Shown: piece after piece, positions 432-60,409 of the stretch
How the letters are laid out: the number at the start of each line of letters is the position of its first letter
Numbering within the stretch: position 1 is the first letter of the stretch
From: Candidatus Omnitrophota bacterium
GTDB taxonomy: Bacteria; Omnitrophota; Gorgyraeia; Zapsychrales; Fredricksoniimonadaceae
NCBI GenBank assembly: GCA_044225175.1
Contig: JBGAJA010000003.1
Span: 197,428 to 261,427, forward strand
Reading direction: 5' to 3'
Length of the DNA: 64,000 bases
Notes under the pieces: generated by a model
What the model was told of the DNA's origin: nothing
The model's input: only the letters and a program-made list of their open reading frames with translations
Database searches by the model: none
Made by a program: the position numbers and the translations under genes

Positions 432-3230
432 ATGTATAAACGATTTATCGCTTCCCTGATTATTCTTACCTTCAGTTGTACTTTAATAACTCCCCAAGCT
501 AACGCAGCACAAGAATCTTTAAATTTACCTATACCCGGCACCATGATTAACCTAAGCCCTGCGTTTGAACCAACCTTAATCAAAGGTCTAACAGTTCATA
601 AAGATAACCCATTTTTGTTTGATTTCATCGTAGATACCGGCAATTCAGGATTATCGTTAGAGATGACCGGCCGGTCGTCTCTACGGGAAGAATCTGACCG
701 ATTAATCAAATATTTTTTCGCCTGTCTGACAGTCCCTGAGAAAGACCTGTGGGTTAACCTATCCCCCTATGAAAAAGACCGAATAGTCCCAGAAGCATTA
801 GGCCAAACAGCCTTAGGACGCGATCTTCTGGCTCAAGACTATATCCTTAAACAGCTAACCGCTTCGCTGATATACCCTGAAAAAGACCTAGGGAAAGAAT
901 TTTGGAACAGAGTGTATGCCAAAGCACAAGCCATGTACGGCTCCAATGCCCAGATACCAGTTAACACCTTTAATAAGGTATGGATCCTAGCAGATAAGGC
1001 AACGGTCTACGAACATGGACAAACAGCCTTTGTAGTTAATGGGCATTTGAAGGTGATGTTGGAAGAAGATTATCTAGCCAGAGACAAGAATCACAAAAAG
1101 GTGTCAGACACCTTTTTGAGCAGTCAAATTATCCGTGATATCGTCATTCCTGAAATCGAAAAAGAAGTCAATACCGGTAAAAACTTCGCTACCTTACGCC
1201 AAATCTTCAATTCCCAGATTCTAGCCACATGGTACAAAAAGAACCTCAAAGAAGCTCTCATCAATCAGGTCTATACTGATAAAAACACCATCAAAGGTGT
1301 AAATTTATCAGACCCATCAGTCAAAGAGCACATTTACCAGCAATACCTTCAGGCCTACAAGAAGGGTGTATTCAACTATGTCAAAGAAGATAAACAAGCC
1401 AATGGCCAGGCAGTTCCAAGAAAATATTTCTCAGGCGGGTATCAAGGGGCCAATGCAGCCATGCTCATAGTATCTCATGATTCTAAGCAGGTTGAGGGAG
1501 CTTTGATGTCAACAGGAAATAGATTCCGTTTTCAAATAGCTCTTGCCATCAATAGTGATTCCGCCATGGCAGCTAGCGAGAGTATGTTTTCTAAAATGGC
1601 AGAAAAGGATATTCATAGTCTTCAAAATTGGCTGGCCCACACAAATAATTTTTTTGATATAAGTAAGATGCCTTTTGATGAGAAATTATCTGTGATTGGC
1701 GCAGATCTTAAATTAACAGTTCTTCCTACTTTAGAAGAATTAGAGCTATTGACTCAAGTTGAAATAATGATGTTAACCTTTGAAGGTAAGGCAGAGACGC
1801 CAATTAATCTTTTAAAAGACTTAGTGGTAAAGATAGCGCAGGATGATTCACTAAAGAAATTATTTGCCAACCCTTCCATTCAAATCCGGCTTAAAGCAGT
1901 AAAAACTCAAGAGATTGAACTAAATATATTATTTAATTTTCTAAAACAAATACTTGGAATAAGTGAACGTACTGTCCCCACAGGAGAGTTTAGCAGAGTG
2001 AAAGGAGGGGTCGTCTGGCAGAAACATGGTGTGAAAGGTGCTGAAAAGAATCCGTCAGTAATTCCTGCTGTCGTTGCATTCATTGATGATGGTTTATATG
2101 AAGTTGGGATTCATCAATCCCACATGGGTGAGATATTAAAACTCACTCCACAATCCCCAAATATGTTGGAACGATTAGTAGAATTATTAAATAAAAATGT
2201 CATTACGGTTCAAAATAAGATCAGACCTCTAACGCCTGAAGAAGTGATAATCTTTGCAAAGATTATTTCTGAAGAAAGAACAGCTTTACAAAATGTCCCT
2301 TTAAAATCTGCAACACTCCTTCCATCCTATCTTAATGCAGATCAGTTGAATGATTTGATTTTGTCGATTGTTAATAAGTATGATATTAAAACTGGTTTAA
2401 AGAAATCTGATTCAGCCATGGCTGCTAAACCCAAAGAAACTCAATCTTCGAATTTAGCTAAGGGCGTAAATTTTGAAGAATTAGACAGAGAAAACAAAGA
2501 GCTAATCCAAAAATTACCAAAGCAGGGAGGCTTAACCTTATCTGATCCCCTCAGCGAACGTCCGATGCAACCAACAGATACCTTTGAGATTCCCTTGGAT
2601 TCATTGAGAATTTACCCCGTCATAGTAACCGTTAATGGTTCCAACCCTTTACGAATTCTCAGAAATCAATTGGGAAAGGACGTCCATTTCCAAGCAGGAT
2701 GGTTAGGGGTGAGAGAACTATTAAACCCAGGTCTCTTTGACTTTACGAAGGGGCGTTGGAGAGTGATTCAATCTGATGGAAGAGAGAAAATTTCTCCATC
2801 TCTTAAAATTGAAGTCACCCCTGACAAACTGATTATTTCTACTACCGACTTTAGAGTTGGAGATCTAAGCATTCGATATTTTGATCAAAGTAATAAAGCC
2901 ATGGTGGTGGCTAAACCAGCAGGAAAATTTGCCGATGCAGCGATGGCGACTAAAAGCGAGACAGTAGCTGATAAAGTAACAATTACGGAAAAATTACCAC
3001 CCGGTGGTATCGACTTAAACTCAGCCAATATGGGTATGATGGTGACCAAGGATGCTAATGGCGGGGTGAAGGTTAATTTTGACCCTGCCATGATTGAACG
3101 CATAAAATCTCAAGGTGTGTTCTCGGCCGATCCGATTATTATTCAAATCACCCCAATCAATGCAACCCAGATACGCCCATTGCTTGGATTCAAAGATCTC
3201 GAGCAAACTCAAAAGCTGGCGAAAGTTTAG
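432..3230 (+). CDS. Large secreted protein, paralog A (932 aa). Signal peptide, then a conserved ~330 aa N-module and ~90 aa C-module shared with the CDSs at 37066, 40893 and 44630; unique central region
   Basis: AAGGAG RBS 8 nt before the ATG. N-terminus MYKRFIASLIILTFSCTLITPQANA is signal-peptide-like. The N-module (LPIPGTMINLSPAFEP...FLFDFIVDTGNSGLSLE...KYFSGG) is ~85% identical to paralog C. The C-module is PGGIDLN...ERIK.QG.FSA.P.II.ITP. No known family recognised. Confidence 0.8.
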   Translation: MYKRFIASLIILTFSCTLITPQANAAQESLNLPIPGTMINLSPAFEPTLIKGLTVHKDNPFLFDFIVDTGNSGLSLEMTGRSSLREESDRLIKYFFACLTVPEKDLWVNLSPYEKDRIVPEALGQTALGRDLLAQDYILKQLTASLIYPEKDLGKEFWNRVYAKAQAMYGSNAQIPVNTFNKVWILADKATVYEHGQTAFVVNGHLKVMLEEDYLARDKNHKKVSDTFLSSQIIRDIVIPEIEKEVNTGKNFATLRQIFNSQILATWYKKNLKEALINQVYTDKNTIKGVNLSDPSVKEHIYQQYLQAYKKGVFNYVKEDKQANGQAVPRKYFSGGYQGANAAMLIVSHDSKQVEGALMSTGNRFRFQIALAINSDSAMAASESMFSKMAEKDIHSLQNWLAHTNNFFDISKMPFDEKLSVIGADLKLTVLPTLEELELLTQVEIMMLTFEGKAETPINLLKDLVVKIAQDDSLKKLFANPSIQIRLKAVKTQEIELNILFNFLKQILGISERTVPTGEFSRVKGGVVWQKHGVKGAEKNPSVIPAVVAFIDDGLYEVGIHQSHMGEILKLTPQSPNMLERLVELLNKNVITVQNKIRPLTPEEVIIFAKIISEERTALQNVPLKSATLLPSYLNADQLNDLILSIVNKYDIKTGLKKSDSAMAAKPKETQSSNLAKGVNFEELDRENKELIQKLPKQGGLTLSDPLSERPMQPTDTFEIPLDSLRIYPVIVTVNGSNPLRILRNQLGKDVHFQAGWLGVRELLNPGLFDFTKGRWRVIQSDGREKISPSLKIEVTPDKLIISTTDFRVGDLSIRYFDQSNKAMVVAKPAGKFADAAMATKSETVADKVTITEKLPPGGIDLNSANMGMMVTKDANGGVKVNFDPAMIERIKSQGVFSADPIIIQITPINATQIRPLLGFKDLEQTQKLAKV
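658..683 (+). repeat. 26 bp near-perfect palindrome (tagagatgaccgg|ccggtcgtctcta) inside the paralog A coding sequence, encoding ..LEMTGRSSL..
   Basis: The two halves are reverse complements with one T/G (wobble-compatible) mismatch. Homologous palindromes lie at 37295..37320 and 41128..41153. Confidence 0.8.
1095..1117 (+). repeat. 23 bp perfect palindrome AAAAAGGTGTCAGACACCTTTTT embedded in paralog A's variable linker (encodes KKVSDTF)
   Basis: Exact reverse-complement symmetry. Two more copies lie at 60114..60139 and 60155..60177 inside another ORF. Confidence 0.85.
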
Positions 3231-5083: not shown

Positions 5084-8000
5084 TGAATCTTTCTGCGTTT
5101 TTTATCAATCGTCCTATTTTTGCTGGCGTTATTTCGACCATTATCTTTCTAGGCGGACTGATGTCCATGGGTCAGTTACCTATTTCAGAATATCCAGAAG
5201 TCTCGCCACCTTCGATTGTTATTAATGCACAGTATCCAGGCGCCAATCCTAAAACCATTGCAGAAACAGTAGCTACTCCATTGGAAGAGCAGATTAACGG
5301 TATTGAGAATATTCTTTATATGCAATCTCAAGCTTCCTCCGATGGAAATTTGTCGCTTACGGTCACCTTTAAAATAGGGACAGATCCTAATTTAGCCCAA
5401 CAATTAGTCCAAAACCGCGTCAATCAAGCCTTGCCTCGTCTTCCAGATGTCACCCGGCAATTGGGTGTGACCACCGTTAAAAGTTCTCCAGATTTAACCA
5501 TGGTTGTGCACTTAAAATCTCCTAGTGAACGTTACAACGAACTTTATTTAAGAAATTATGCTGTGTTAAATGTTAAAGACCAATTGGCTAAGATTGAAGG
5601 AGTAGGGACGGTTCGTGTATTTGGTTCAGGAGATTATGCCATGCGTGTTTGGCTTAATCCGGATAAGATTGCCGAGCGAAGCTTAACAGCTAATGATGTG
5701 GTGAACGCCATTCGAGGACAGAACGTGCAAGTGGCAGCTGGGGTCATCGGAGGTCCACCATATGAGCAGAAGAATGAACTGCAAATGACAATCAATGCCC
5801 AAGGGCGGCTAACAGAGCCTGAGCAGTTTGCCGAAATTATCATCAAACGAGAGAATGATGTTATTACCCGTCTTAAAGATGTAGGGCGTGTTGAATTGGA
5901 TGCCTCAACCTATAGTTTACGCTCTTTGCTTAATAATCAACCAGCCGTTGCTATCGCTATTTTTCAAGCCCCCGATTCCAATGCCATTGAGATTTCCAAT
6001 CGTGTGCGAAAAGCCATGAAAGAAGTTAAGAAAAGCTTCCCAGAAGGGGTTGATTTTGCCATTGTTTATGACCCTACCGTCTTTGTGCGCGGTTCTATTG
6101 AAGCTGTTATCCATACCATGATTGAGGCCGTTCTTCTGGTCGTCCTGGTCGTTATTTTATTCTTACAAACATGGAGAGCTTCCATCATTCCTTTATTGGC
6201 TGTTCCCATTTCCATTATTGGAACCTTTGCCATTATGCACATGTTTGGATTCTCCATTAATACACTGTCACTTTTTGGGATGGTGCTGGCGGTCGGGATT
6301 GTCGTTGATGATGCGATCGTTGTTGTAGAAAATGTGGAACGTAACATTGAAAATGGACTGTCTCCTCATGATGCCACAATTAAAGCTATGCAAGAGGTCA
6401 CAGGCCCTATTATTGCAATCGCTTTGGTCCTTTGTGCGGTATTTATTCCCATTGCCTTTATTAGCGGTTTAACGGGTCAATTTTACCGTCAATTTGCTCT
6501 CACTATTGCATTCTCAACTATTATTTCAACCTTCAACTCCCTGACTTTATCTCCAGCATTGTCTGCTGTTTTACTTAAAAGTCACGACGCACCTAAAGAT
6601 AAATTGACTATCATCATGGATCGTGTGTTTGGAGGATTCTTTGCTGGGTTTAACCGGTTCTTTAAAGGCAGCTCCCAGAAATATAGTCAAGGTGTAGGTG
6701 GAGTTATTCAGCATAAATCCAAAACACTTTTTGTGTATGTTTTGTTGCTGGGTTTGACTTACATTGGTTTCCAACATGTCCCACCTGGCTTTGTTCCTAT
6801 GCAAGACAAGCAATATCTGATTAGTTTTGCCCAATTGCCAGAGGGTGCCACTTTGGAACGCACCGAAAAAGTCATTCGTGAGATGTCTGAAATTGCTATG
6901 AAAGAGCCAGGGGTTCAAGATGCGGTTGCATTTCCAGGACTGTCGGTAGCTGGATTTATGAACAGTTCATCAGCCGGGATTGTGTTTGTCCCCTTGAAAC
7001 CTTTTGAAGAAAGACGTTCCAAAGAACTTTCCGGTATGGCTATTTCCCAGAGCCTTCAGATGAAATATGCGGGCATTAAGGACGCCTTCATTGCTATTTT
7101 CCCACCACCGCCCGTTAGAGGTTTAGGAACGATGGGGGGGTTCAAGTTGCAGATTGAAGACCGATCAGATCATGGGTATGAAGAATTAGCTGCGACTGTA
7201 CAAAAAATTACGGGAAAAGCCTATCAAACTCCTGAACTAACTGGAGTCTTTTCTTCTTATAAAATCAATGTGCCTCAGCTTTATGTGGATTTAGATCGAA
7301 CCAAAGCTATGCAGTTAGGTATCAATGTTAAAGATGTATTTGATACCATGCAGATTTACTTAGGATCTATGTACGTGAATGATTTTAATAAATTTGGCCG
7401 TACCTATCAGGTGGTAGCTCAAGCTGATCGTGAATACCGTTCCTCTAAGGAGGATATTTTGAAATTGCGTACACGCAACGATAAAGGAGAAATGGTTCCC
7501 TTAGGTTCCGTCGTACAAATCCAAGAAATGACAGGCCCTGAAAGTGTGGTTCGCTACAACGGTTTTAGAGCCGCTGATATTAATGGCGGTCCAGCACCCG
7601 GGGTTTCTTCAGGCCAAGCTCAGGCAGCGATCACCAAGATTTTGGATGAGAACCTTCCTAAGGGGATGACCTATGAGTGGACAGATTTGGTGTATCAACA
7701 AATTCTGGCAGGCAATACAACCCTTTTGGTTTTCCCGTTATGCGTGCTTTTAGTATTTTTAGTGCTGGCTGCTCAATATGAAAGTTTTGTTTTGCCGCTG
7801 GCCATTATCTTGATTGTACCTATGTGTTTATTCTCAGCGATTATGGGAGTATGGCTTACTAAGGGTGATAACAACATGTTTACCCAGATTGCTTTCTTTG
7901 TGTTGATTGGGCTTGCCTGTAAGAACGCTATTTTGATTGTGGAATTTGCCCATCAATTGGAGCTTCATGGTAAGAAGACCATTGATGCTGCTATAGAGGC

Positions 8001-36875: not shown

Positions 36876-37044
36876 ATGACCAAAAAAAATCTTTTCAGTA
36901 GTATTACTTACGTTGTTTGTGGTTTCCGTAATGTCCATTTCTAAGTTTTAGCGTGTCCACTATGTCCTGCTGGGGTTGTTCAGATTGGATGCACAGAGGA
37001 TGGTCAAGCCATATGAGTGTCTAAATATCCAGGGGATAATTTCT
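36876..37044 (+). pseudogene. Degenerate duplicate of the 5' part of the small-protein gene (~92% identical to 36433..36578), with frameshift and in-frame stops
   Basis: Direct alignment of 36898..37044 with 36433..36578 (ttacgttgtttgtggtttccgtaatgtccatttc...tgtcctgctggggtt.ttcagattggatgcacagag.atggt...atatccaggggataat). A 2 nt length difference after the ATG and a TAA stop disrupt the frame. Confidence 0.7.
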
Positions 37045-37065
37045 GTTTTTAAGGAAGTCCAATTT

Positions 37066-40000
37066 ATGTTCAAAAGATTGATCTCTATTTTACTTATTCT
37101 GACCTTTTGCAATGAAACCTTTATGGTTTCTCCTGCAATAGCTTTAGAAGGTAATATACAGCTGCCTGTTGCAGGATCTATGGTCAATTTAAGTCCTGCC
37201 TTTGAACCGGTCCTTATTAAAGGGTTAACCATTCATAAAGAAAATCCATTTCTGTTTGATTTTATCGTGGATACTGGAAATTCAGGATTATCGTTAGAGA
37301 CGCAGCATGCTGCGTCTCTACGTAAGGAATCTGAGAGATTAATCAAATACTTCTTCGCTTGTTTGACCATTCCAGAAAATGACCTATGGGTCAACCTTTC
37401 GCCATACGAGAAACAGCGTATGGTTCCAGAAGCCCTGGGACAAACCGCCCTGGGTCGAGATCTTTTAGCTCAAGACTATATCCTTAAACAGCTCACTGCA
37501 TCCTTGATCTATCCTGAGCGTGAGCTGGGAAAAGAGTTTTGGAATCGAGTCTACGCTAAAGCCCAAGCAATGTATGGGCCAAACGTTCAAATACCAGTCA
37601 ATACATTTAATAAGGTATGGATCCTGGCAGACAAGGCCAGTGTGCACGAACGAGGCCAGAGCGTGTTTGTGGTCGATGGGCATCTCAAAGTAATGTTGGA
37701 AGAAGATTATCTAGCCGTAGACAAGAGCCTACAGCCAACCAGGGGATATGTTCAGAACAAAATTAACAGGAACGTGTCCCCAAGCACATTGCCAAGCGAC
37801 GTAGTATTGAATACGAAAGCACCCCAGGGAAACCCCGTTAACGCCATCGGAAGCCAAATCATCCGAGACATCATCCTCCCTGAAATCGAAAAAGAAGTCA
37901 ACGAGGGCAAGAATTTTGCAACCTTACGTCAGATTTTTAATTCTCTGATTCTAGCAACCTGGTATAAGAACAATCTCAAAGACTCGATTCTTAATCAGCT
38001 TTATTCTGATAAGAACATCGTCAAAGGTATCAACCTTTCTGATTCTTCAATCAAAGAGAAAATTTATCAGCAATATCTTCAGGCTTATAAGAAGGGAGTA
38101 TTTAACTATATTAAGGACGATCCACAGGCCAGTGGTCAAAATATTCCCAGAAAGTATTTCTCTGGCGGTTTTGGGGCAAAGAAAGGTTTTTTAAGTAAAA
38201 TTAGTTCTGCTAAGGCCCACCATCCTACGGGTCGTGATTATGTTATGAAAGTTGGATTGGATGTGCAAGGCTCCGCAAATTTGTTCGATCAGGCACAGAT
38301 AGCAAGGGCACTCCACTCTTTAAGGGTTTTTCTTATGGGTTCTATTGTAGCGTCAGGAGCAATATCAAATCTAGCAACGGGTTACCAGCAGCCAGTTATT
38401 CAAGAAACATCAGAAAATCTCTCTGATCATCCATTAAAGACACCAAACGGTAATATTCATATTTTCCCATCTCTTCATGCAAGTAATAAAAGTAGAGAAA
38501 AGCTTGAAAAGGCTTTAAAGACTTTTGATGAATTTTATAAACAACAAAATAAAGATAGGAAGCAATTCACAGAAGCAGCAAAAGTAGCAATAGGGGCTAT
38601 AGATCAATTCTTAAATGATAATAGTTACGTCCTAGAAGATCAGAAAAAGCAAGTACCGGATTTGATAGGAAAGATTACAAACAACCACATCAAATATCTT
38701 TCACCTGAGGGTGTCCCCGTAGAAATGGATGGGGTAACAATGCAAGAGATGATTATGAAGGCGAATAATGAATATACAAAACTTGAAGAACAATTAGAAC
38801 CTCTAAAGAATTTAGGTTGGAAAGGAAGTGTCTTGAATGTTTATAGCTTATCAAGAGGGACAATTGCTTTTTTATGCAGAACTTACGGTGATTTTTTAAT
38901 TCAGCAGGAAGTAGAGATCTTTCCGGTAGACTTACTGATGTGGGGAAATATGGGAGAGAAGATGGAAGTTGAATTTATGATGTATGGTTTCACAGAGGAA
39001 GAAGCTCAGAATGAATCTTTACAATTGAAAGGAGATGCCAGAAATAGGTTTACTGCTTTTAGAGTTAATAATGGATCTCAATGGAACAGAATAACGCATA
39101 AAAACGTGAGCTTCGAGCCACCCCTAGGTAACAAGGATATTATCATTGGAAATGGACATACAGTTACGCAGTTAGAAGAAAATTCTCCTAAAGTTAAAAC
39201 TACACTTCAAGGAGAAATTAAAAGACAACAGTTAAGGCCAAATAGTGAGATTGATTCAACTATAGAGCTTGATAGGGATGTTCTTATGCTTCAATTGAAT
39301 GCAGATCCTGTATTTAAGTATCTTTACGGAGAAGTAACAAAAGAAGATTTAACGAATTGGAGCAGGAATGGCACAGTGTATCAGCCGCTAATAGAGATTA
39401 TTAAAGAAGACACCTTAGGTCCAATGACTAAACTGTCGAAACTGTCAAAAGACCCTAAAACTATCGCAGATCCGTCAAATTTGAAATTTATCTTCTTTAA
39501 CAGTCCCAAAAACAATGAATTTGGAATTAAGAAGGGAAACCTTTTTGTTTATAGGGTAGGCTCGCGCGTCTATGTTTTAGTACCTTTAGATGCTTTTCAA
39601 GAGAACGTAAATGATGCGCACAAAATGACGTTTTTACTTAAATGCGCTTTATTAGCATTAGTAGATCAAGACAAGGGATTAACGTTGTTGGAGCAAGAGA
39701 TCAAGGCTATGAGGATGTTTAGAGACATGCTTTTAAAATATGATCCAAACTCAAGCCGCCGTACGATAGAAGTATATCAAGAGTTAGCGGCAAGGTTTCA
39801 ATCATTAGATAATAATATAAAAAGTATTGAAGAGTATATTGATTGGAGCTTTACGAAGGTTGATGTTTCAAAATTGAGATATTATGAATCTAAACGTGAT
39901 GAAGAGGATCCTAAGATTATAGTTGTACAGTTGTTTGATCCACAAACAGTTAATCAAGATGGAAAAGCAACCTTCATTAATGTCAAGATAGTTGAAGGTG

Positions 40001-40290
40001 AAGCTCCAGTAGTTAAAGAGGAATTAGGTCAGATTTCAAATCCAGCTATGATTAGTGAAGATAGAGAAGAAATGTCGCAATTATTAAGAGTGACGGAAAC
40101 ATCGCCAGGGGGTATCGATTTAAATACCACTGATATGGGTATGGCAGTGACAAAAGATGGCTCTGGTGTTGATATGTCTGCCTTCGGCGGAAATCCAGCC
40201 ATGTTAGAACGTATCAAGGCCCAAGGGATCTTTTCAGCAGAACCAATCATTATTGAAATTACCCCTGTAACCGCTTTAATGTACGAATAG
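37066..40290 (+). CDS. Large secreted protein, paralog B (1074 aa from MFKRL). Central region is homologous to paralog C but not to A or D
   Basis: Signal peptide; N-module and C-module shared with A, C and D. The ORF tracker's 36976 start runs back into the pseudogene remnant. Confidence 0.8.
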   Translation: MFKRLISILLILTFCNETFMVSPAIALEGNIQLPVAGSMVNLSPAFEPVLIKGLTIHKENPFLFDFIVDTGNSGLSLETQHAASLRKESERLIKYFFACLTIPENDLWVNLSPYEKQRMVPEALGQTALGRDLLAQDYILKQLTASLIYPERELGKEFWNRVYAKAQAMYGPNVQIPVNTFNKVWILADKASVHERGQSVFVVDGHLKVMLEEDYLAVDKSLQPTRGYVQNKINRNVSPSTLPSDVVLNTKAPQGNPVNAIGSQIIRDIILPEIEKEVNEGKNFATLRQIFNSLILATWYKNNLKDSILNQLYSDKNIVKGINLSDSSIKEKIYQQYLQAYKKGVFNYIKDDPQASGQNIPRKYFSGGFGAKKGFLSKISSAKAHHPTGRDYVMKVGLDVQGSANLFDQAQIARALHSLRVFLMGSIVASGAISNLATGYQQPVIQETSENLSDHPLKTPNGNIHIFPSLHASNKSREKLEKALKTFDEFYKQQNKDRKQFTEAAKVAIGAIDQFLNDNSYVLEDQKKQVPDLIGKITNNHIKYLSPEGVPVEMDGVTMQEMIMKANNEYTKLEEQLEPLKNLGWKGSVLNVYSLSRGTIAFLCRTYGDFLIQQEVEIFPVDLLMWGNMGEKMEVEFMMYGFTEEEAQNESLQLKGDARNRFTAFRVNNGSQWNRITHKNVSFEPPLGNKDIIIGNGHTVTQLEENSPKVKTTLQGEIKRQQLRPNSEIDSTIELDRDVLMLQLNADPVFKYLYGEVTKEDLTNWSRNGTVYQPLIEIIKEDTLGPMTKLSKLSKDPKTIADPSNLKFIFFNSPKNNEFGIKKGNLFVYRVGSRVYVLVPLDAFQENVNDAHKMTFLLKCALLALVDQDKGLTLLEQEIKAMRMFRDMLLKYDPNSSRRTIEVYQELAARFQSLDNNIKSIEEYIDWSFTKVDVSKLRYYESKRDEEDPKIIVVQLFDPQTVNQDGKATFINVKIVEGEAPVVKEELGQISNPAMISEDREEMSQLLRVTETSPGGIDLNTTDMGMAVTKDGSGVDMSAFGGNPAMLERIKAQGIFSAEPIIIEITPVTALMYE

Positions 40291-40796: not shown

Positions 40797-40892
40797 TGAA
40801 TTTGCAATGATGACATAGGCATGCTATCTTTTAGCAGGCCTCAATCGTACCCATAGCATCTCTTTTTAAAGCAATTGAATATTGGGACAATT

Positions 40893-43800
40893 ATGTTTAA
40901 ACAGTTGATTGCTTTTCTAATCATTTTGACCTTCAGTACTTCCTCAATTTATGTGCCTCAGGCGCAAGCCATAGAGAAGCCATATCTTTTGTCTTTGCCT
41001 GTTCCAGGCACAATGGTCAATTCAAGCCCATCCTATGAACCTGCATTAATCAAGGGGTTGACCATTCATAAAGACAACCCATTTTTGTTTGATTTTATTG
41101 TGGATACGGGTAATTCTGGATTATCGTTAGAGACGACCGGCCGCTCGTCTCTACGCGAAGAATCTGACCGTTTAATTAAATATTTTTTCACCTGCCTGAC
41201 AGTTCCAGAAACAGACCTCTGGGTCAATTTGTCACCTTATGAGAAAGACCGTATTGTTCCTGAAGCATTGGGAGAAACGGCCTTAGGACGAGATTTGCTT
41301 GCCCAAGACTATATCCTTAAACAACTGACTGCATCGCTAATTTATCCCGAGAAAGACTTAGGCAAGGAGTTCTGGAGCCGTGTTTATGCCAAAGCACAAG
41401 CCATGTATGGCTCTAATGTTCAGATTCCAGTTAATACCTTTAATAAGGTATGGATCCTGGCAGACAAAGCAAGTGTTTATGAAAATGGCCAGAGCGTGTT
41501 TGTGGTTGACGGACATTTGAAAATTATGTTAGAAGAAGATTATTTGGCCCTTCAGAAGAACCACATTTCCTCTCCCCACAAGGGGAAGGAAACCAGTTCT
41601 ATCGGATCCCAAATCATCCGCGACATCGTCCTTCCTGAAATAGAAAAAGAAGTCAACCATGGCAAGAATTTCGCAACTCTACGACAAATTTTCAACTCTC
41701 TCATTCTAGCTAGCTGGTATAAGAAAAATCTCAAAGACTCTATTCTTAATCAGCTCTATTCTGATAAAAATACGGTTAAAGGCATTAATCTTTCAGATAT
41801 CTCAGTGAAAGACCAGATTTATCATCAATATCTTAAAGCTTATAAGAAGGGAGTATTTAACTATATTAAGGAAGACCCTTCGACTGACTCTCAGGGCAAG
41901 TCCCAAGCAATTTCCAGGAAATACTTCTCTGGTGGTTTTGGAGTAAGGAAAGATTTCTTAAGCAAGGCAAGTCCTGCTATGGCGGCCCAAAAACTCGGCC
42001 GTACAACAGGTCAAGATTATGCTATGAAGGTAAGGTTGAATGTAGAAGCCCCATCTAACTTATCAGATCAAGCACAAATAGCTGCTGCAATAAGATATCT
42101 CAGAGCATTTTTGATTGGATCGATATTATCCTCAGGATTTATTGAAAATAATGTGAATAGCTATCAACAGCCAGAAACTCTAGAAGCTACTTTCAAAGAA
42201 GCACAAAATGTTCCTGAATCCTCAGTTCAAACACCTAAAGGAGAAATTACTTTTTTCCCGGCTGATCATGTAAGTATGGATAGTATCGAAGAATTGGAAA
42301 AGGCTTTGAATTCTTTCGATAAGAATGAGGCTAATAAAGCCATTGATAAGTTCTCTACACAGAACAGAGCAATATTAGAGGGGCAGAGAAGTCAAGTCGA
42401 AGATATGATCGATAAGATTAAAAGAAATCATATCAAATACCTTTCACCAGAGGGAGTATCCGCAGATATGGAAGGGATGTCAATGCAAGAGGTGATCGCA
42501 CTGGCTCGCGAGCAATACACTACACTGGAAGCCCAATTAGAAAAATTAGGTCGTAAAGAAAGCGCTGAGGATCTTTATTTAGGAATAACTGGTCCTACTT
42601 CCTTTTTATGTTTGATGCATGGGGATGTCTTAATACAGCAGGGTGTTGAACTCTTTCCTATTGATTTGCCGATTTGGGGCAATATGGCGAGAGATATCAA
42701 AATAAAGCTTGAGAAACAGGGGATAACAGGAAAAGAAGCATGGGAAACAGCTTTTTCTCTTATGTTAACAAGTAGAAATAAGTTTATGGCGTACAGATTT
42801 TTCCAGGGACCACAAGGCAAAAAAGGTAGCTCTATGGGACCCTTTCACACAGGTGAGAAACCTGAAGGAGAGAATCCTCCTAGAATTGATTCGACCTTAC
42901 CGGGTGAAATTGAAAAACTAATTGAAAAATCAAAATCAAGCCCCGCCATTGAAATTGATCCGAAGGTTGAATCAGATCGTAAAGAACTTATTGCGCGTTT
43001 GAATGCTGACCCTGTATTTAATTTGCTTTATGGGGATGTAAACACAGAAAATATCAAATCATGGAGTAAGAATGGATTGCAGTATCAGCCTTTGATAGAC
43101 ATCGTGACTAAGTACACCTTGGATCCAATGAGTAAGGCATTCCAAATTTCTATCGCAGATCCTTCTAATTTAAGATTTGTATTCTTTGAAAGTCCTAAAA
43201 ATAATGAATTTGCAATGAAGAGAGGGCATCTTTTTACTTATAAAGTCGGCTCTCGCACGTACATCTTAATACCTTTAGATACTTTTCAAAAAGCCAGGGC
43301 AGCAGAAGCAGTAGCTTTCTTACTTAAAAGTGCCTTGGTAGCTTTAATGGATCAAGACAAGACAGTACCAGCAATGAAAAGAGACATAGATATTCTTACC
43401 TATTTTAGAGGAATCCTATCGAATTATGATAACAATCCTTCTTTTAAGGAGAGAAATTTAGAAACAAAAACAAGGTTTGAACTTATACAGAGTAATATAA
43501 GTGGTGTTGAACAGGCTATTCATAAGGATTTGCCGCAAGTTGATGTTGCAAAATTGCGATATTATGATTCTAAGCGTGATAAAAAGGACCCTACGGTTAT
43601 ATTTGCTCAATTCTTCGATCCACAAACTGTCACCAGGGATGGAAAAGTTCCCTTTATTAAAGTAAATATAATTGATAAGCCTGGATCAACAGTTACAGTC
43701 AAGCAAGAACCTGGTCAAATTAGCAATCCAGCGATGATTGGTGAAGAAGATATACAATCGAAAGTAACGCCAGGGGGTATTGATTTGAATACTACTGACA

Positions 43801-43976
43801 TGAGTATGGCCGTGACCAAGGATGCTGGAGGAGTCAAGATGAATCTGCCAGCCAGAGGCTGGTCCGCCTCCGGCGGAGATTCAGCCATGCTTGAGCGTAT
43901 CAAAGTTCAGGGGGTATTTTCGGCCACTCCTGTAATTATTGAAATTACACCTGTGAGTTCTTTAAGGTACAAATAA
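40893..43976 (+). CDS. Large secreted protein, paralog C (1027 aa from MFKQL)
   Basis: N-module ~85% identical to A. Central region shares blocks with B (NHIKYLSPEGV, LNADPVF, ADPSNLRFVFFESPKNNEF, VDVAKLRYYDSKRD). C-module conserved. Confidence 0.8.
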   Translation: MFKQLIAFLIILTFSTSSIYVPQAQAIEKPYLLSLPVPGTMVNSSPSYEPALIKGLTIHKDNPFLFDFIVDTGNSGLSLETTGRSSLREESDRLIKYFFTCLTVPETDLWVNLSPYEKDRIVPEALGETALGRDLLAQDYILKQLTASLIYPEKDLGKEFWSRVYAKAQAMYGSNVQIPVNTFNKVWILADKASVYENGQSVFVVDGHLKIMLEEDYLALQKNHISSPHKGKETSSIGSQIIRDIVLPEIEKEVNHGKNFATLRQIFNSLILASWYKKNLKDSILNQLYSDKNTVKGINLSDISVKDQIYHQYLKAYKKGVFNYIKEDPSTDSQGKSQAISRKYFSGGFGVRKDFLSKASPAMAAQKLGRTTGQDYAMKVRLNVEAPSNLSDQAQIAAAIRYLRAFLIGSILSSGFIENNVNSYQQPETLEATFKEAQNVPESSVQTPKGEITFFPADHVSMDSIEELEKALNSFDKNEANKAIDKFSTQNRAILEGQRSQVEDMIDKIKRNHIKYLSPEGVSADMEGMSMQEVIALAREQYTTLEAQLEKLGRKESAEDLYLGITGPTSFLCLMHGDVLIQQGVELFPIDLPIWGNMARDIKIKLEKQGITGKEAWETAFSLMLTSRNKFMAYRFFQGPQGKKGSSMGPFHTGEKPEGENPPRIDSTLPGEIEKLIEKSKSSPAIEIDPKVESDRKELIARLNADPVFNLLYGDVNTENIKSWSKNGLQYQPLIDIVTKYTLDPMSKAFQISIADPSNLRFVFFESPKNNEFAMKRGHLFTYKVGSRTYILIPLDTFQKARAAEAVAFLLKSALVALMDQDKTVPAMKRDIDILTYFRGILSNYDNNPSFKERNLETKTRFELIQSNISGVEQAIHKDLPQVDVAKLRYYDSKRDKKDPTVIFAQFFDPQTVTRDGKVPFIKVNIIDKPGSTVTVKQEPGQISNPAMIGEEDIQSKVTPGGIDLNTTDMSMAVTKDAGGVKMNLPARGWSASGGDSAMLERIKVQGVFSATPVIIEITPVSSLRYK

Positions 43977-44629: not shown

Positions 44630-47467
44630 ATGTATACTAAGGTCCTAATGCTTAAGCGTTGCATATCTTTCTTTATTCTTTTGTGTTTCACCTATACTTC
44701 GGTAATTCCACCTGCCTATGCCCAGGAAATGATTCATTTACCTATACCTGGTCAGATGTTAGATCCTAGTCCAGTTTTTAATTTTCCTATAATTAAAGGT
44801 TTAACTATTCATCCTGAGAATCCTTTGCAGTTCGATTTTTTGATTGATCCTGGCCAGGGCAATCTTTCCCAGAAAGATAAACAAATTGAATATCAGAAGA
44901 TTATTAAGTATTTTTTGGCTTCTTTGACTGTTCCTGAGAAGGACTTATGGGTCAATCTTTCTCCTTATGAAAAGAACCGCATGATTCCTGATAGTTTTGG
45001 CAAGACAGAGATGGGAAGAGATCTTCTGGCTCAAGACTATATTCTCAAGCAAATTACAGCATCGCTCATGTATCCAGAGAAGGAGCTAGGGAAAAGCTTT
45101 TGGAATAAGGTCTATCAAGAAGCTCAGAATCGTTTTGGCAATACCGATATTCCCGTGAACACCTTCAATAAAGTTTGGATAGTCCCGGACAAGGCATCGG
45201 TGTATGAGAAGGAGAATACGGTATTTCTGGTAGAAGGGCATTTGAAGGTGATGTTGGAGGAGGATTATCTGGCCATCCAAAAACACCACCAGGGAAAGGG
45301 AACCAATTCTATCGGCAGCCAAATCATCCGTGAAATCATTCTCCCTGCCATTGAAGAAGAAGTCAACCAAGGCAAAAATTTTGCCAACCTCCGCCAAATC
45401 ACCAATTCATTGATCCTTGCGACGTGGTATAAGACCGCCCTTAAACAAAGCCTTCTGAATAAGATTTATGCGGATAAAAGTAAAGTAGAAGGTGTTAACC
45501 TAGATGATCCTAAGGACAATCAAAAGATTTACCAACGATACCTCCAAGCCTTCAAAAAAGGCGTTTATAACTACATCAAAGAAGAATCAGACCCAGTGAC
45601 CAAAGAATTCATCCCTAGAAAATATTTTTCTGGAGGGTTTTCACCAGACTTAGATGGAGTCATGTTAGGTCAACGCATTAAGCAACTAGATCTAATCAAA
45701 GATGCAGCCTTAATAGCAAAAGTTACGAAGAGTACTTTTGTATTAGATCAAACCCAAGTTTTATTAAAAGATGTGCCAAATCATCCTTATGGGAATGAAA
45801 GTTTTATTAGTAGAGAGTTGGATAAATTATTTCAAACTTATATTGATTTTCATTCTTGGTTGTCAAAGAAGAGGCAACAGAGAGTGCTTTTAGTTGGTGT
45901 TGGAAGAGGGCTAGCAGCTATGCAATTAGCACTGAGATATCCCAATTTAGAAATTATTGCGGTCAATAAAGAAAGCGACTTATGGTCTGATAAAATTATT
46001 GGAGATTATCTAGTCAGTACAGGTGTGCGCAAGAAAGATGTTACAGCCGCACGAAAAAGGATAACCTTAAACATAGTTGATTTAGATTCTGAATCAGGAA
46101 AGCAACAAATTTTTAAAGAAAGATATGATGCGATTATTTTCGAGCCATTCGTTCTAATATATTTTAGAGATAAAGTAAAAGCAATTGAAGCTGCCTACAA
46201 TGCATTAAATCCTAATGGATTTTTAGGGTTTGAAAAAAATAGAATTCTGGCATCAAATAAGAATAAGGAAGAAGAAGTTCTTAACGTTTTGTTAAGCAGT
46301 CTTGCTGCACCAAGGCCAATAATAGATACTGTAAATAGTGTTCAATTAATTAAGAAAAGTTCAAAAAAAATAAATATTCCTCTTAAGTTAAAACGTTCAG
46401 AATTAGCTGCAATACCTAATTATTCTAGTGTTAAGCCAATAAATTCTTTTTATTCATTAGACCAAGCGCAAGTTACATTGCAGGAGCCAACGTATTCGTC
46501 TGATTCAGCAATGGCATCTAAACAAAAAGATACGCAAATAAATAAGCGCGATCAGAAATACCATTATGAATGGTCCATTGACCATTTAGGCAAAGGCAGC
46601 GTGGAGATCAATTATTCCCCTATGCAGAATAAAACATGGGTGGAATATACTGCACCAGGTGAACTTAAGAAAAAAGCTGAATTATCGGGGAAGCATGTAG
46701 TTCCTATGAAAAACAAATTTTATTCGGGCATGGATGGAGACATAAAGATATTTCCTTATATTGTCTCTAAAGGTTTTTCGGAATTGTTAAAAAAAGCAGG
46801 CATCCCATTAAAGTTTCTAGTTCCAGATACAATTCCTAACCGAGTAAGAGTTTTTATATTTGCTTTAACTCAAGCAGGTATAAGTATTGGAAATTCGGAT
46901 CAATTAAAAGACAGCCCACAATTTGCTCAAGGTGGCAAGCAAGATGAGGCTATGGTCGCGATAAGTCCGATTAATTGGAAGATAGTAGAAGGACAAGGCT
47001 ATCCTTTTGAGATTTCTAAGGATAAAGATACAAAAATTGCACCTATTGTTCGTCATTATTATGTGACTTTCAATGGGAAACGTGTGACATTCGCAGATAG
47101 GAAACAGTCTAGCTCAAGTGTTCTTTATATTTATGCCGATCGAAAGATCGTTCATATGGAATCATTTAATCCATTATTTCCTAGAACCAAAGAAATGCGC
47201 CAAAAAGTAAGTCAAGATCTTGGAGGTATTGACCTTAACCCAAGGAATTTTAACCTCCAAATCAAACGCGACGGTAAGGGTGTGCCTTTGCCGGTCGAGT
47301 TTCAGGATGTTGAGCATATCAATGTACGTGGATTTATTCCTGTGATTATCAAAATTACGCCTGTTTCGAATCTGAGATTGTTGTTAGGAATGGCAGAGAA
47401 CAAAGAGCTCCCGAAAATCCCATCCAATTCAGAAGCACATTTCCCACAATACGCGCTTAAGGAATAA
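44630..47467 (+). CDS. Large secreted protein, paralog D (945 aa; most divergent). Central region contains a SAM-dependent methyltransferase-like segment
   Basis: Conserved N-module (~60% identical to A) and C-module (GGIDLN...ITPVSNL). Central segment RVLLVGVGRGLAAM...YDAIIFE...LNPNGFLGF resembles class I MTase motifs I, II and III. Confidence 0.75.
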   Translation: MYTKVLMLKRCISFFILLCFTYTSVIPPAYAQEMIHLPIPGQMLDPSPVFNFPIIKGLTIHPENPLQFDFLIDPGQGNLSQKDKQIEYQKIIKYFLASLTVPEKDLWVNLSPYEKNRMIPDSFGKTEMGRDLLAQDYILKQITASLMYPEKELGKSFWNKVYQEAQNRFGNTDIPVNTFNKVWIVPDKASVYEKENTVFLVEGHLKVMLEEDYLAIQKHHQGKGTNSIGSQIIREIILPAIEEEVNQGKNFANLRQITNSLILATWYKTALKQSLLNKIYADKSKVEGVNLDDPKDNQKIYQRYLQAFKKGVYNYIKEESDPVTKEFIPRKYFSGGFSPDLDGVMLGQRIKQLDLIKDAALIAKVTKSTFVLDQTQVLLKDVPNHPYGNESFISRELDKLFQTYIDFHSWLSKKRQQRVLLVGVGRGLAAMQLALRYPNLEIIAVNKESDLWSDKIIGDYLVSTGVRKKDVTAARKRITLNIVDLDSESGKQQIFKERYDAIIFEPFVLIYFRDKVKAIEAAYNALNPNGFLGFEKNRILASNKNKEEEVLNVLLSSLAAPRPIIDTVNSVQLIKKSSKKINIPLKLKRSELAAIPNYSSVKPINSFYSLDQAQVTLQEPTYSSDSAMASKQKDTQINKRDQKYHYEWSIDHLGKGSVEINYSPMQNKTWVEYTAPGELKKKAELSGKHVVPMKNKFYSGMDGDIKIFPYIVSKGFSELLKKAGIPLKFLVPDTIPNRVRVFIFALTQAGISIGNSDQLKDSPQFAQGGKQDEAMVAISPINWKIVEGQGYPFEISKDKDTKIAPIVRHYYVTFNGKRVTFADRKQSSSSVLYIYADRKIVHMESFNPLFPRTKEMRQKVSQDLGGIDLNPRNFNLQIKRDGKGVPLPVEFQDVEHINVRGFIPVIIKITPVSNLRLLLGMAENKELPKIPSNSEAHFPQYALKE

Positions 47468-49314: not shown

Positions 49315-50368
49315 ACACATCGAAGTCAAATCTCTGCGGGCGCCTTTAATTCAACCCTTTCGTGTGGCAACGGGGCAGCACAATTCTTTGGATAATTTAT
49401 TAATTATTCTTAAATTTGACGACGGAACCATAGGTTACGGAGAAGCTGCCATTGCCTCTCACATCACAGGAGAAACGATTGAAGAAACACGTGCTAATTT
49501 GCAAACTGCAGCTCAATGCCTCGTTGGGTTCTTAGCCTCAGATTATTTGCGTATATCCAAATGGCTGCATGATTCTTTCCCTCTTAATAAGAGTGCTGTC
49601 TGTGCGATTGAAATGGCTTTGTTTGATGCTTTAACTAAATCTATGAAAATTCCATTGTGGAAGATGTTTGGGGCTCAACCTAAGATGCTAAAGACGGATA
49701 TTACAATTGTGATTTCATCGCTACAAGAGACCCAGGATACGACTAAGACGTTTTATAAGAAAGGTTTTAGGTCTTTTAAAATCAAAATCGGCAAAGACAT
49801 GGATTTAGATTTTAAACGTGTACAAGCCGTCTCTAAGATTGCCCGAAACTCCAGTATCATTCTGGATGCTAATCAGGGATACACTTCCAAACAAACGCTC
49901 CAATTTTTAAACATGGTCCAAAAGGCAAAGATTAAGGTGGATTTGATTGAACAACCTACAGCTAAAGCTGATTTTGAGGGGTTAAAGCAAGTCACCCGTT
50001 TATCGAAGGTGCTTGTCTGTGCTGATGAGAGTGCATCCTCAATTGCTGATGTGATAAAACTGATCCAAGAAAAGGCTGTGGGGGCAATTAATATTAAACT
50101 GATGAAGACTGGCATTGTTCACTCTTTTGAAATTGCCCGTATAGCCAAAGCCTCAGGACTCAAACTGATGATTGGCGGCATGATGGAAAGCAATCTAGCC
50201 ATGAGCGCCTCAGCCCATTTGGCGACAGGCTTAGGCTTTTTTGATTTTATTGATTTAGATACACCGTTTTTTATCAAGAAGGAAGTTGCTCGGAATCCTT
50301 TTTTAAGTGATAAGGGAGTCTACAATTTGTCCCAAGCCAAAGCTGGTATTGGCATTAATCCCAAATGA
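49304..50368 (+). CDS. Dipeptide epimerase (L-Ala-D/L-Glu epimerase, enolase superfamily)
   Basis: MR/MLE capping and barrel domains: KIKIG...DANQGYT...IEQP...DES...KLMKTG. Overlaps the upstream peptidase stop. Confidence 0.8.
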   Translation: MRIKHIEVKSLRAPLIQPFRVATGQHNSLDNLLIILKFDDGTIGYGEAAIASHITGETIEETRANLQTAAQCLVGFLASDYLRISKWLHDSFPLNKSAVCAIEMALFDALTKSMKIPLWKMFGAQPKMLKTDITIVISSLQETQDTTKTFYKKGFRSFKIKIGKDMDLDFKRVQAVSKIARNSSIILDANQGYTSKQTLQFLNMVQKAKIKVDLIEQPTAKADFEGLKQVTRLSKVLVCADESASSIADVIKLIQEKAVGAINIKLMKTGIVHSFEIARIAKASGLKLMIGGMMESNLAMSASAHLATGLGFFDFIDLDTPFFIKKEVARNPFLSDKGVYNLSQAKAGIGINPK

Positions 50369-51973: not shown

Positions 51974-51998
51974 GGGCGGGTTTTAAACCCGCCCGTTT
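51974..51998 (+). terminator. Hairpin terminator after trxA (short T-tail)
   Basis: gggcggg-ttttaaa-cccgccc followed by GTTT. Confidence 0.45.
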
Positions 51999-58641: not shown

Positions 58642-59121
58642 ATGGGAAACGAAGTCTATTTAACTCGCAAAGGTTTTCAAAAATTACAAGAAAAGTTAGA
58701 AGCTTTAAAAACAACAGAGCGTCAGAAGATTGCAAAAGCAATTGGTGAGGCCAGAGCGCAGGGGGATATTTCTGAAAATGCTGAATATGACGCGGCTAAA
58801 GACGCTCAGGCTCATAATGAGGCGCGTATTGCGGATTTAGAAGGTCAATTGGTAAATGTGCGTATTATTGAAAATGAGAATATTCCTTCAGACAAGATTT
58901 ATATTGGTGCTATTGTGACGTTAGAAGATTTGGATAACGACGAAGAATTAACATATATGCTTGTTTCTCCGGAAGAGGCGAGTTACGAAGAAAACAAGAT
59001 TTCTATTTTTTCACCAATTGGAAAAGGTCTTTTGGGACATAAACCCGGTGAGACGGTTTCTATCAAAGTTCCAGCTGGAACGCTTAACTACAAAATCAAG
59101 AAACTTAAGCGTCCTTCTTAA
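58642..59121 (+). CDS. greA: Transcription elongation factor GreA
   Basis: N-terminal coiled coil (LTRKGFQKLQEKLEALK...) plus an FKBP-like C-terminal domain. Confidence 0.9.
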   Translation: MGNEVYLTRKGFQKLQEKLEALKTTERQKIAKAIGEARAQGDISENAEYDAAKDAQAHNEARIADLEGQLVNVRIIENENIPSDKIYIGAIVTLEDLDNDEELTYMLVSPEEASYEENKISIFSPIGKGLLGHKPGETVSIKVPAGTLNYKIKKLKRPS

Positions 59122-60409
59122 AGAAGCTTATTCCCATCCATAGAAATACAGAAGGCATGAGTGCAAAGATAATACGATGCAGGGTATTATCCATCCACCA
59201 TTTGATATCATCGAAAAACATATTTGTCTGATAATAGGCAATTGTGACCATCAGATAGGCGGCCATAAAAAGACCTATAATTGCCAAAGGTTTTTGAAAA
59301 GCCTTTTTCCATCCTAATCCTATCCCCAAAGCAGCCAGCGCCCACAGCCCCATCCACTTAAGGCTCAAGAATTCAAAGAGGGTATAACTTAAAATAAAAA
59401 GAAATCTTGGGAAGGTTGATGGTTTTTCAGGTGAGAGAAGACCATTAATAAAGGCATCGCCATGAGGAGCCATGGTTAGTGTGAAAATAATCATAGGTAG
59501 GGCTGCAAGAAAGATTGTTCCAATGATTTTCCACAATTGAGATGGCTTCTCAATAAGAAGAAGGATGCATAAGATTCCTGCCGCTGCCAGGCCTTCATTT
59601 TTAGTAAATGAAAGAAGTCCTATAAAAATGGCTGATAAGATTAAGAATCGAAAGTCTCTAAGTTCAACAGAAAGCAGATAACAAACGAAAAAGCAAAGTA
59701 AGTAAAGACCAAAGAGAACATCGCTATATTGGCTTATAAATAAAGTATTTCCAAATGCCAAGGTAAATACCGCCCCTGTTATTAATGTCGAATAGAGGAT
59801 TGATACGCCCAAAGCTTGAAGTCCAAGGAGCAAAACTCCTGCTGTGACTAGTGTTAAGACGATAGCATTCAACATACAAACGTTTTGAGAGAATCCTGTC
59901 CATTGCCAAAACCAAACATTGAGAGTGGGTAAACCTAATGGGTATCCAGTATTACTACGCCATAAAATCGGACTAAACATGTCTTTCCAATGATGTTCCC
60001 CAAAATAGATAAATTTCGCTTTAAGGTTCCAGCAAGACCAAGCATCCCACCCCCCCATAGGATAATGACAAGCTTCAAACCATAGAGGAACAGCCAAAAC
60101 AGGCAATACCAGCAAAAAAGGTGTCAGACACCTTTTTTTGCTAAAACACTCTTCAAAAAGGTGTCTGACACCTTTTTGATTAAGCCAGATTAGGAGTCCT
60201 AAAAGTATGATGCTTACAAGGAGAGGTAAGAAGTGGTTGAAGTTATTGCCAACAAGTTGCAAATAAAAGATGATTTGGCTAACAAGACCAAATCCTAAAG
60301 CTGCACCTAAGAAGATTGATAATTGGTTTAACGGACGATTTTTAAGAACAAGACGCAGGCACAATGTCCCTAAGCACACGGCTATTAATAAAGCTATAAG
60401 ATACATCAT
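59105..60409 (-). CDS. Polytopic membrane protein, possibly a GT39/83-like glycosyltransferase; its coding sequence hosts two copies of a 23 bp palindrome
   Basis: ~11-12 TM helices; convergent with greA (3' ends overlap). Family not firmly recognised. Confidence 0.4.
   Translation of the reverse strand: MMYLIALLIAVCLGTLCLRLVLKNRPLNQLSIFLGAALGFGLVSQIIFYLQLVGNNFNHFLPLLVSIILLGLLIWLNQKGVRHLFEECFSKKRCLTPFLLVLPVLAVPLWFEACHYPMGGWDAWSCWNLKAKFIYFGEHHWKDMFSPILWRSNTGYPLGLPTLNVWFWQWTGFSQNVCMLNAIVLTLVTAGVLLLGLQALGVSILYSTLITGAVFTLAFGNTLFISQYSDVLFGLYLLCFFVCYLLSVELRDFRFLILSAIFIGLLSFTKNEGLAAAGILCILLLIEKPSQLWKIIGTIFLAALPMIIFTLTMAPHGDAFINGLLSPEKPSTFPRFLFILSYTLFEFLSLKWMGLWALAALGIGLGWKKAFQKPLAIIGLFMAAYLMVTIAYYQTNMFFDDIKWWMDNTLHRIIFALMPSVFLWMGISFFKKDA
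60114..60177. repeat. Two copies of the same 23 bp palindrome (aaaaaaggtgtcagacacctttttt and aaaaaggtgtctGacaccttttt), 15 bp apart, inside the minus-strand membrane-protein ORF
   Basis: Sequence read directly. The centre base alternates A/T, so the copies are in opposite orientation. They are translated in two different frames (SKKRCLTPFL and QKGVRHLF). Confidence 0.85.

Follow-up and report, generated by a model that had tools for sequence, protein, structure and literature searches.

Repetitive extragenic palindromes (REPs) are usually described as lineage-specific partners of single-copy genes for tyrosine transposases associated with REPs (RAYTs), a view that the palindrome family reported here suggests should be revised. 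The closest described systems are the TIRYT genes, which are flanked by terminal inverted repeats (TIRs) sharing the sequence GGGGWSAS; some of these TIR families are self-complementary, dimeric and moderately abundant (multi-copy), and intragenic REP dimers encoding 20-30 aa have been reported as well, one host being a bacterium of the Planctomycetes-Verrucomicrobia-Chlamydiae (PVC) group (Di Nocera et al. 2013, PMC3733652). Most of these TIRYTs (PMC3733652) correspond to subclass 2.1 of the TnpA-REP proteins, to which Bertels' group 1 RAYTs (PMC5581495) correspond as well. Here we analyze a stretch of 64,000 nt, hereafter the window, from a Candidatus Omnitrophota bacterium (contig JBGAJA010000003.1, positions 197,428 to 261,427), in which a perfect 23-bp palindrome, AAAAAGGTGTCWGACACCTTTTT, occurs three times within two real genes and uses three reading frames. 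These palindromes are probably copies of a hairpin repeat of the REP/TIR type, with a TIRYT-type RAYT as cognate enzyme, that persist in frame in permissive loops of the encoded proteins. The copies and their host genes are the following:

1095..1117, unstranded: solo copy of the palindrome, centre A on the plus strand, giving KKVSDTF in the linker between domains of paralog A.
60115..60137, unstranded: left copy of the doublet, centre A on the plus strand, minus-strand reading KKRCLTPF.
60155..60177, unstranded: right copy of the doublet, centre T on the plus strand, minus-strand reading KGVRHLF.
60115..60177, unstranded: both doublet copies taken together, an A-then-T pair with 40 nt from centre to centre, encoding the whole loop between transmembrane segments 3 and 4 (TM3-TM4).
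432..3230, plus strand: paralog A, the host gene of the solo copy (932 aa); its Omnitrophota family shares an N-terminal domain of ~340 aa that is conserved.
59105..60409, minus strand: host gene of the doublet, whose product is a polytopic membrane protein of 434 aa with some PMT_2/ArnT-like homologues; the gene is conserved in Omnitrophota, with synteny.

The exact 23-mer AAAAAGGTGTCAGACACCTTTTT, with A at its centre on the plus strand, is found at 1095-1117 and 60115-60137, and the form with a central T at 60155-60177. The symmetry is 11+1+11, the unpaired centre base being the sole asymmetric position. A first-pass annotation, made from the sequence of the window, had listed three occurrences in three frames, encoding KKVSDTF in paralog A and QKGVRHLF and SKKRCLTPFL in the open reading frame (ORF) 59105-60409 on the minus strand, and exact matching confirms all of this. 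None of it is expected by chance, as 100 dinucleotide-preserving shuffles of the window give 0 matches to the 23-mer, even with 3 mismatches allowed. When the 13-mer core GGTGTCWGACACC is searched with up to 2 mismatches, just the three known sites are recovered, against 0.34 expected, and the window therefore contains three perfect copies and no decayed ones. The opposite orientation described for the doublet also holds; the distance of 15 bp becomes 17 nt when measured between the 23-mers (~15 if the longer A6/T7 runs are included), and the doublet starts at 60115, one base from the 60114 given. The palindrome is open in five of the six frames, with a stop solely in the T-centre frame (GTC-TGA). 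All three copies do lie within ORFs, as had been emphasized, but since ~92% of the window is coding, an exclusive location in ORFs is statistically unremarkable for two insertion events. The solo copy at 1095-1117, as single-stranded DNA, folds into a hairpin of -10.5 kcal/mol (z -5.4), and the doublet at 60115-60177 can fold into a 23-bp hairpin of -23.9 kcal/mol (z -7 to -7.8). A scan of the whole window against Rfam at the gathering threshold returns no family, and to our knowledge the palindrome matches none of parS, matS, CIRCE, dif, the LexA and CRP boxes, the Tn3 ends or sequencing adapters.

Copies in other genomes were collected by the palindrome alone, which gave 236 loci in total: at least 116 from a scan of one genome per species with the 19-mer AAAGGTGTCWGACACCTTT, and at least 120 from a scan of metagenome contigs with the full 23-mer, most of the latter with a GC content of 0.6-0.8. 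Exact matches are found in multiple copies across nine or more phyla, over a GC range of 34-77%; among the matches listed, the 19-mer loci come from Planctomycetota, Actinomycetota, Bacillota, Bacteroidota, Pseudomonadota, Nitrospirota, Acidobacteriota and Patescibacteria. Several metagenome-assembled genomes (MAGs) of other phyla carry 5-7 loci each among the matches listed, and the window carries 3 copies per 64 kb with 0 expected. Nearly all of the genome matches are MAGs, and copies are also present in the isolate Collinsella massiliensis (L110) and in the closed long-read chromosomes OY781056.1 and OY759675.1. In loci with a GC content below 0.55, 46 of 51 copies are located outside long open frames and 5 of 51 inside, so that ~90% are extragenic there. 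The arms beyond the core differ by lineage, for instance gcgcaag...cttgcgc in Solirubrobacteraceae, attacac...gtgtaat in Bacteroidales, and aataagttaa...ttaacttatt in Syntrophomonadaceae, and in high-GC genomes the hairpin is lengthened by lineage-specific G+C arms without a T-run. Viral contigs contain 0 palindromes in 2.9 million and just distant RAYT relatives without such hairpins. Plasmids gave no blastn match, a negative of little weight given that A/T runs may be masked by the low-complexity filter. No Omnitrophota relatives were detected among the 236 loci by tblastn with the window proteins, nor in the 120 metagenome loci by phmmer with the N-terminal domain.

Two arrangements of the repeat are seen in particular lineages. 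In Thermoleophilia and Gaiellaceae MAGs (L075 at ~900-1100; also L029, L041, L074 and L095), T-centre and A-centre cores alternate about every 46 nt, forming regular arrays that resemble bacterial interspersed mosaic elements (BIMEs). Within Pirellulales MAGs, the symmetric core variants GGTGGCTGCCACC and GGTGTCGGACACC adjoin canonical copies (L064 at ~7430-7460; L038 at ~2240), which suggests coexisting families of core variants.

All-versus-all clustering of the ORFs from the 116 palindrome-chosen genome loci yields, as the top recurrent family, a Y1 transposase encoded directly beside the palindromes. The protein is ~225-360 aa long, matches PF01797 (Y1_Tnp) with E-values of 1e-11 to 1e-15, and scores 75.6 and 80.7 bits against the NCBIfam model REP_Tyr_transpos, whose cut-off is 80. 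Residues N59, H60 and H62 (HUH), Y122, N126 and S143 are invariant, in sequences sharing just 26-28% identity; the motifs are NH[WYV]H, Y[IV]E/HxNP and SS, with a C-terminal helix-turn-helix (HTH) in two members. Judged by length, by the HTH and by the published motif table (PMC6006769), on which the class given here is based, the protein fits TnpA-REP subclass 2.1, characterized by the HUH motif, a catalytic Tyr in a Y-x-x-x-NP context, the SS motif and ~238 aa or a C-terminal HTH. A profile search finds the transposase, fragments counted, in 10 of the 236 loci (six genome and four metagenome loci) from several phyla. By a rough estimate, ~1.5 Mb of random bacterial DNA should hold less than one such gene. 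More than 7,600 relatives of this family are present in databases, some of them proteins from cultured Pirellulaceae.

In these 10 loci, palindromes lie ~10-100 nt from both ends of the transposase gene. Read on the coding strand of the transposase, the outer upstream copy is centred on A in 8 of 9 loci, and the downstream one on T in all seven loci having that side, which means that the two ends are inverted and that the centre base tells left from right. Across all loci, 84 close pairs were found, in which the A-then-T configuration is enriched with 44, next to 16 TT, 14 TA and 10 AA. The earlier comparison of the palindrome with mini-elements such as RPE, Correia and REP sequences is thus supported by its position beside RAYT-type genes in 10 independent loci, its multi-copy nature and its inverted doublets. 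The first-pass annotation had also proposed to look for a REP-associated tyrosine transposase; it is found beside the palindrome in those 10 loci of other genomes, and none is present in the 64-kb window.

Some features of the transposase genes themselves can be added. One cluster at 90% identity (P0132, P0344-P0350) includes cultured Pirellulaceae from five genera or more, Neorhodopirellula pilleata having two copies, which reflects either unusually strong conservation or recent transfer. In L010, a palindrome copy at ~1733 lies inside the transposase ORF itself (1132-2271), and in L071 and L054 the stop-free transposase frame extends through the flanking copies, giving VSDTF peptides.

The two host sites in the window can be compared with orthologous sites in related Omnitrophota. 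In the membrane protein, the peptides encoded by the doublet make up the entire variable 21-aa loop between the third and fourth hydrophobic segments. The syntenic orthologue in L118/L119, 65% identical in protein sequence to that of the window, has AAAACTAGTGCCAGGCACCAG ... CTGGTGCCTGGCACTAGTTTT at the same codon positions, and the orthologue in L117 has AGAGGTGACGGACACTTT ... AAAGTGTCCGTCACCTCT at the loop site. The loop regions of the window, L118 and L117 each fold into a 21-23 bp hairpin (z -7 to -9.5), with 7 base pairs changed on both sides between the window and L118, 4 between the window and L117, and 9 between L118 and L117. The loop peptides differ among the three while the complementarity of the arms stays, and the self-complementarity of a single copy drops from 11 in the window to 5 in L118 and 1 in L117. 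These hairpin pairs, with paired changes in their arms and different peptides, indicate that the doublet is old and that arm complementarity has been retained rather than the peptide. One further paired change is implied by the P0002 protein (KTSDRHQ...NWCLSLV), if its sequence is read back to DNA. The distant orthologue in L120 has a shorter loop without any such hairpin pair. It is the nucleic-acid hairpin that is maintained, and not the peptide. Quasi-palindrome template switching is an established mutational process that perfects inverted repeats without selection, and the compensated arm changes could result from selection on the hairpin or from correction by such template switching. The perfect 23-mers of the window, compared with the diverged orthologous pairs, suggest continuing sequence constraint on the family in this genome.

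In paralog A, KKVSDTF is encoded by the palindrome within a linker rich in indels, for which paralogs B, C and D have unrelated sequence, as had been noted at first reading. The linker has the same length as that of paralog D, which points to replacement and not to simple insertion. L122 carries an identical 23-mer at the same linker position, with T instead of A at the centre; the surrounding domain is 73% identical at the DNA level, and all synonymous positions of the 23-mer are retained. Two more proteins from another genome have KKVSDTF at the same position. With the linker excluded, paralog A is 90% identical to the palindrome-free P0224 and ~72% identical to the palindrome-bearing clade, so that the palindrome linker must have arisen or been transferred more than once; palindrome-bearing linkers are indeed polyphyletic within this protein family. 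The idea of an inserted element consequently needs to be modified, because the linker of paralog A was replaced at the length found in paralog D and the doublet constitutes a whole 21-aa loop. The opposite possibility raised by the first-pass annotation, of ancestral coding sequence shared by relatives, applies insofar as a hairpin pair or the 23-mer is present at the same sites, but the pattern of conservation, with compensatory changes in the arms and with synonymous sites all kept and the centre base alone free, is that of a constrained DNA hairpin and not of ancestral coding sequence.

The repeat family has the core GGTGTC-W-GACACC, in most cases with runs of A and T on its sides, and we propose a mechanism in which its partner enzyme is a tyrosine transposase (Y1 HUH) associated with REPs, of the type named TIRYT, subclass 2.1 or group 1. 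A full element consists of the transposase gene placed between a centre-A copy upstream and a centre-T copy downstream, as inverted ends. Because the pair at 60115-60177 has the same A-then-T polarity as the ends flanking the transposase and contains no gene, it probably represents a non-autonomous, REPIN-like mini-element, or minimal miniature inverted-repeat transposable element (MITE), and the copy at 1095-1117 would be a solo unit. By analogy with IS200/IS605 and with E. coli TnpA-REP, the transposase would recognize, during replication, the hairpin that the repeat forms in single-stranded DNA, cut it and rejoin it, which would copy the hairpin to new sites. In this gene-dense genome, copies would survive just where the encoded peptide, rich in Lys and then Phe/Leu, is harmless, namely in a cytoplasmic-type loop between membrane helices and in a variable inter-domain linker. 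The Lys...Phe/Leu peptide produced by the A-run and T-run flanks may be suited to the edge of a membrane helix. After insertion, the complementarity of the arms would persist. The data show the repeat family, its association with the transposase in other genomes, the polarity of the doublet, the position inside genes and the compensatory maintenance of the hairpin; mobilization by the transposase, and the presence of such a transposase in this genome, are what we infer.

Several observations weigh against copies of a transposase-linked repeat. No target-site duplication is visible at either window site, and neither site resembles a clean insertion with an empty site. The perfect conservation of the 23-mer at homologous sites exceeds what is usual for a decaying selfish element. 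Searches by tblastn and by hidden Markov model detected no RAYT gene in the window, nor in the ~46 kb of DNA from related Omnitrophota (L117-L122), and 0 of the 10 RAYT-linked loci come from Omnitrophota. In addition, Quentin et al. (2018) reported no REP-like sequences beside subclass 2.1 genes (PMC6006769). The hairpin might instead be a cis element that the host keeps by selection in any location, either as the site of a conserved DNA- or RNA-binding protein or as a structure in mRNA or DNA that influences replication, transcription or translation, with the transposase association being secondary. Such a role is consistent with the invariance of 13-23 nt over nine phyla and a GC range of 34-77%, with the compensatory changes that maintain the orthologous hairpin as the peptide changes, with the retention in L122 of every synonymous position, and with the lack of decayed copies in the window. 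Nevertheless, we consider it unlikely, given that the host sites are hypervariable loops of unrelated genes, that the L120 orthologue has no such hairpin, that copies elsewhere are scattered, mostly extragenic and in no fixed relation to particular genes, and that the sole recurrent neighbour is a transposase bracketed with fixed polarity; template switching, moreover, can perfect inverted repeats in the absence of selection. Another conceivable scheme, which we hold to be decidedly unlikely, is that one hairpin of 13-23 nt would be recognized unchanged, in nine or more phyla, by a family of tyrosine transposases that is very diverse and may be domesticated, and would be actively kept as a nucleic-acid structure even in coding sequence, as a conserved cis-acting element with a host-level role (e.g. 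replication-fork or transcript processing) and not merely a selfish one.

The succession of A-run, G+C hairpin and T-run also has the shape of a bidirectional intrinsic terminator or attenuator, which would be located in genes by chance. A consensus scan flags the copy at 60153-60179, and many copies elsewhere lie between genes. All three window copies, however, are within long conserved ORFs that need read-through transcription, sequence conservation across phyla is not a trait of terminators, the lineage-specific G+C arms in high-GC genomes come with no T-run, and terminator-like sites in the region are no more numerous than in shuffles, which makes terminators very improbable. That the palindromes are ordinary ancestral coding sequence, a chance palindrome or an artefact of assembly is hardly credible at all: related sequence does occur at the same sites in relatives and almost every genome match is a MAG, but zero chance matches are expected, arm complementarity is conserved where the peptides are not, linkers with the palindrome are polyphyletic in their protein family, and the linked transposase family is present in cultured Pirellulaceae. 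The copies in the isolate Collinsella massiliensis and in the closed chromosomes OY781056.1 and OY759675.1 rule out an assembly artefact. A hairpin repeat of the REP/TIR type, served by a TIRYT-type RAYT and tolerated in permissive loops, is hence the explanation we favour.

The main points are the invariance of the hairpin across phyla and its maintenance within coding sequence. Subclass 2.1/group 1 RAYTs have been reported without nearby REPs, and the present data qualify that statement. An identical hairpin core that occurs with very divergent subclass 2.1 members in many phyla, and whose A or T centre gives the polarity, offers a minimal and well-defined substrate for enzyme biochemistry. 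The Omnitrophota copies indicate that repeats can persist for long inside the genes of a gene-dense genome, the DNA hairpin being preserved over the peptide. For annotation, such copies should not be mistaken for terminators or gene breaks.

The host genes deserve a short description of their own. About 100 homologues of the 434-aa membrane protein have lengths of 426-441 aa, the named ones being from Candidatus Omnitrophica and some having PF13231, and the gene order around ORF 59105-60409 matches that in the relative L118. The membrane-protein gene and a convergent GreA-like gene (58642-59121) overlap by 17 nt (59105-59121) at their 3' ends, an overlap also present in L118, L119 and L120. 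The window contains four paralogs of the other host family, at 432-3230, 36976-40290, 40875-43976 and 44630-47467, all with a signal-like start, the conserved N-terminal domain of ~340 aa and, at the C-terminus, the motif GGIDLN...PIIIEITP. The N-terminal domain alone is matched by more than 4,300 homologues in databases, and many of these have Pfam matches elsewhere in the protein to housekeeping enzymes, among them hexokinase, adenylate kinase, enolase, phosphoglycerate kinase and transaldolase. A short SDSAMA-like motif is found at domain boundaries, two times in paralog A, which has a FADAAMA variant too, and also in paralog D (44630-47467). An unrelated perfect palindrome, GCGGGTTTTAAACCCGC, is located at 51976-51992, in an 847-nt gap between ORFs 50365-51522 and 52369-52878.

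A literature search on the exact core returned no paper, and neither relevant TIRYT/TIRtron follow-ups nor Omnitrophota palindromic repeats; no description was found of the palindrome itself, its identity over nine phyla and over transposases with mutual identities of just 26-28%, the centre-base polarity rule, or the compensated hairpin at Omnitrophota coding sites. The kind of element is already known, since REP/TIR repeats are established and the Rickettsia palindromic elements (RPEs) are a precedent for in-frame palindromic repeats. In RPEs and in intragenic REP dimers (Opitutus terrae, R. conorii), as here, palindromic repeats are carried in frame in loops or linkers of functional genes, often as dimers that encode 20-30 aa. 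RPE-1, however, is 100-150 bp long and has no known transposase, whereas the unit here is 23 bp (63 bp for the doublet) and is tied to RAYTs in other genomes; neither its length nor its lineage is that of Rickettsia RPEs. Correia elements and TIR MITEs measure 100-160 bp, with TIRs and target-site duplications, unlike the 23-bp unit, at which no duplication is visible. Intrinsic terminators consist of a G+C hairpin and a T-run where a transcription unit ends at its 3' side; one copy matches their shape, but all copies are internal to conserved ORFs. IS200/IS605 elements and their derivatives, palindrome-associated transposable elements (PATEs) and MITEs, share the PF01797 superfamily, hairpin ends and gene-less derivatives with the present system; they differ in having sub-terminal imperfect hairpins in like orientation on one strand and transposases of ~150 aa, while here the ends are inverted and the protein has RAYT-type extensions.

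The REP/REPIN-RAYT systems of Enterobacteria and Pseudomonas (groups 2 and 3) resemble ours in their short hairpin repeats, in inverted doublets as the likely replicative unit, in the flanking of transposase genes and in long persistence at orthologous sites. The doublet has the organization of a REPIN, with inverted units, a short spacer and a long hairpin whose arm complementarity is maintained (23 bp in the window, 21-23 bp in orthologues). Classical REPs, nevertheless, are imperfect palindromes with a GTAG/GTGG head, lineage-specific, coevolving with their RAYT and almost wholly extragenic, whereas here we observe no GTAG tag, identity across phyla and an intragenic position for all three window copies, each inside a real ORF and not in the predominantly extragenic location typical of REPs and TIRs. 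The closest match is with the TIRtrons and the TIRs of TIRYTs (PMC3733652; subclass 2.1, PMC6006769; group 1, PMC5581495), where, as here, inverted repeats bracket a Y1 HUH transposase that measures ~225-240 aa, or more if it ends in a C-terminal HTH, and that has the motifs NH[WYV]H, Y[IV]E/HxNP and SS. The core GGTGTCAG is one position off the published TIR consensus GGGGWSAS. Unlike those TIRs, one identical core here serves transposases that are 26-28% identical in nine phyla, and the unit is a perfect 11+1+11 palindrome whose asymmetry resides in the centre base alone.

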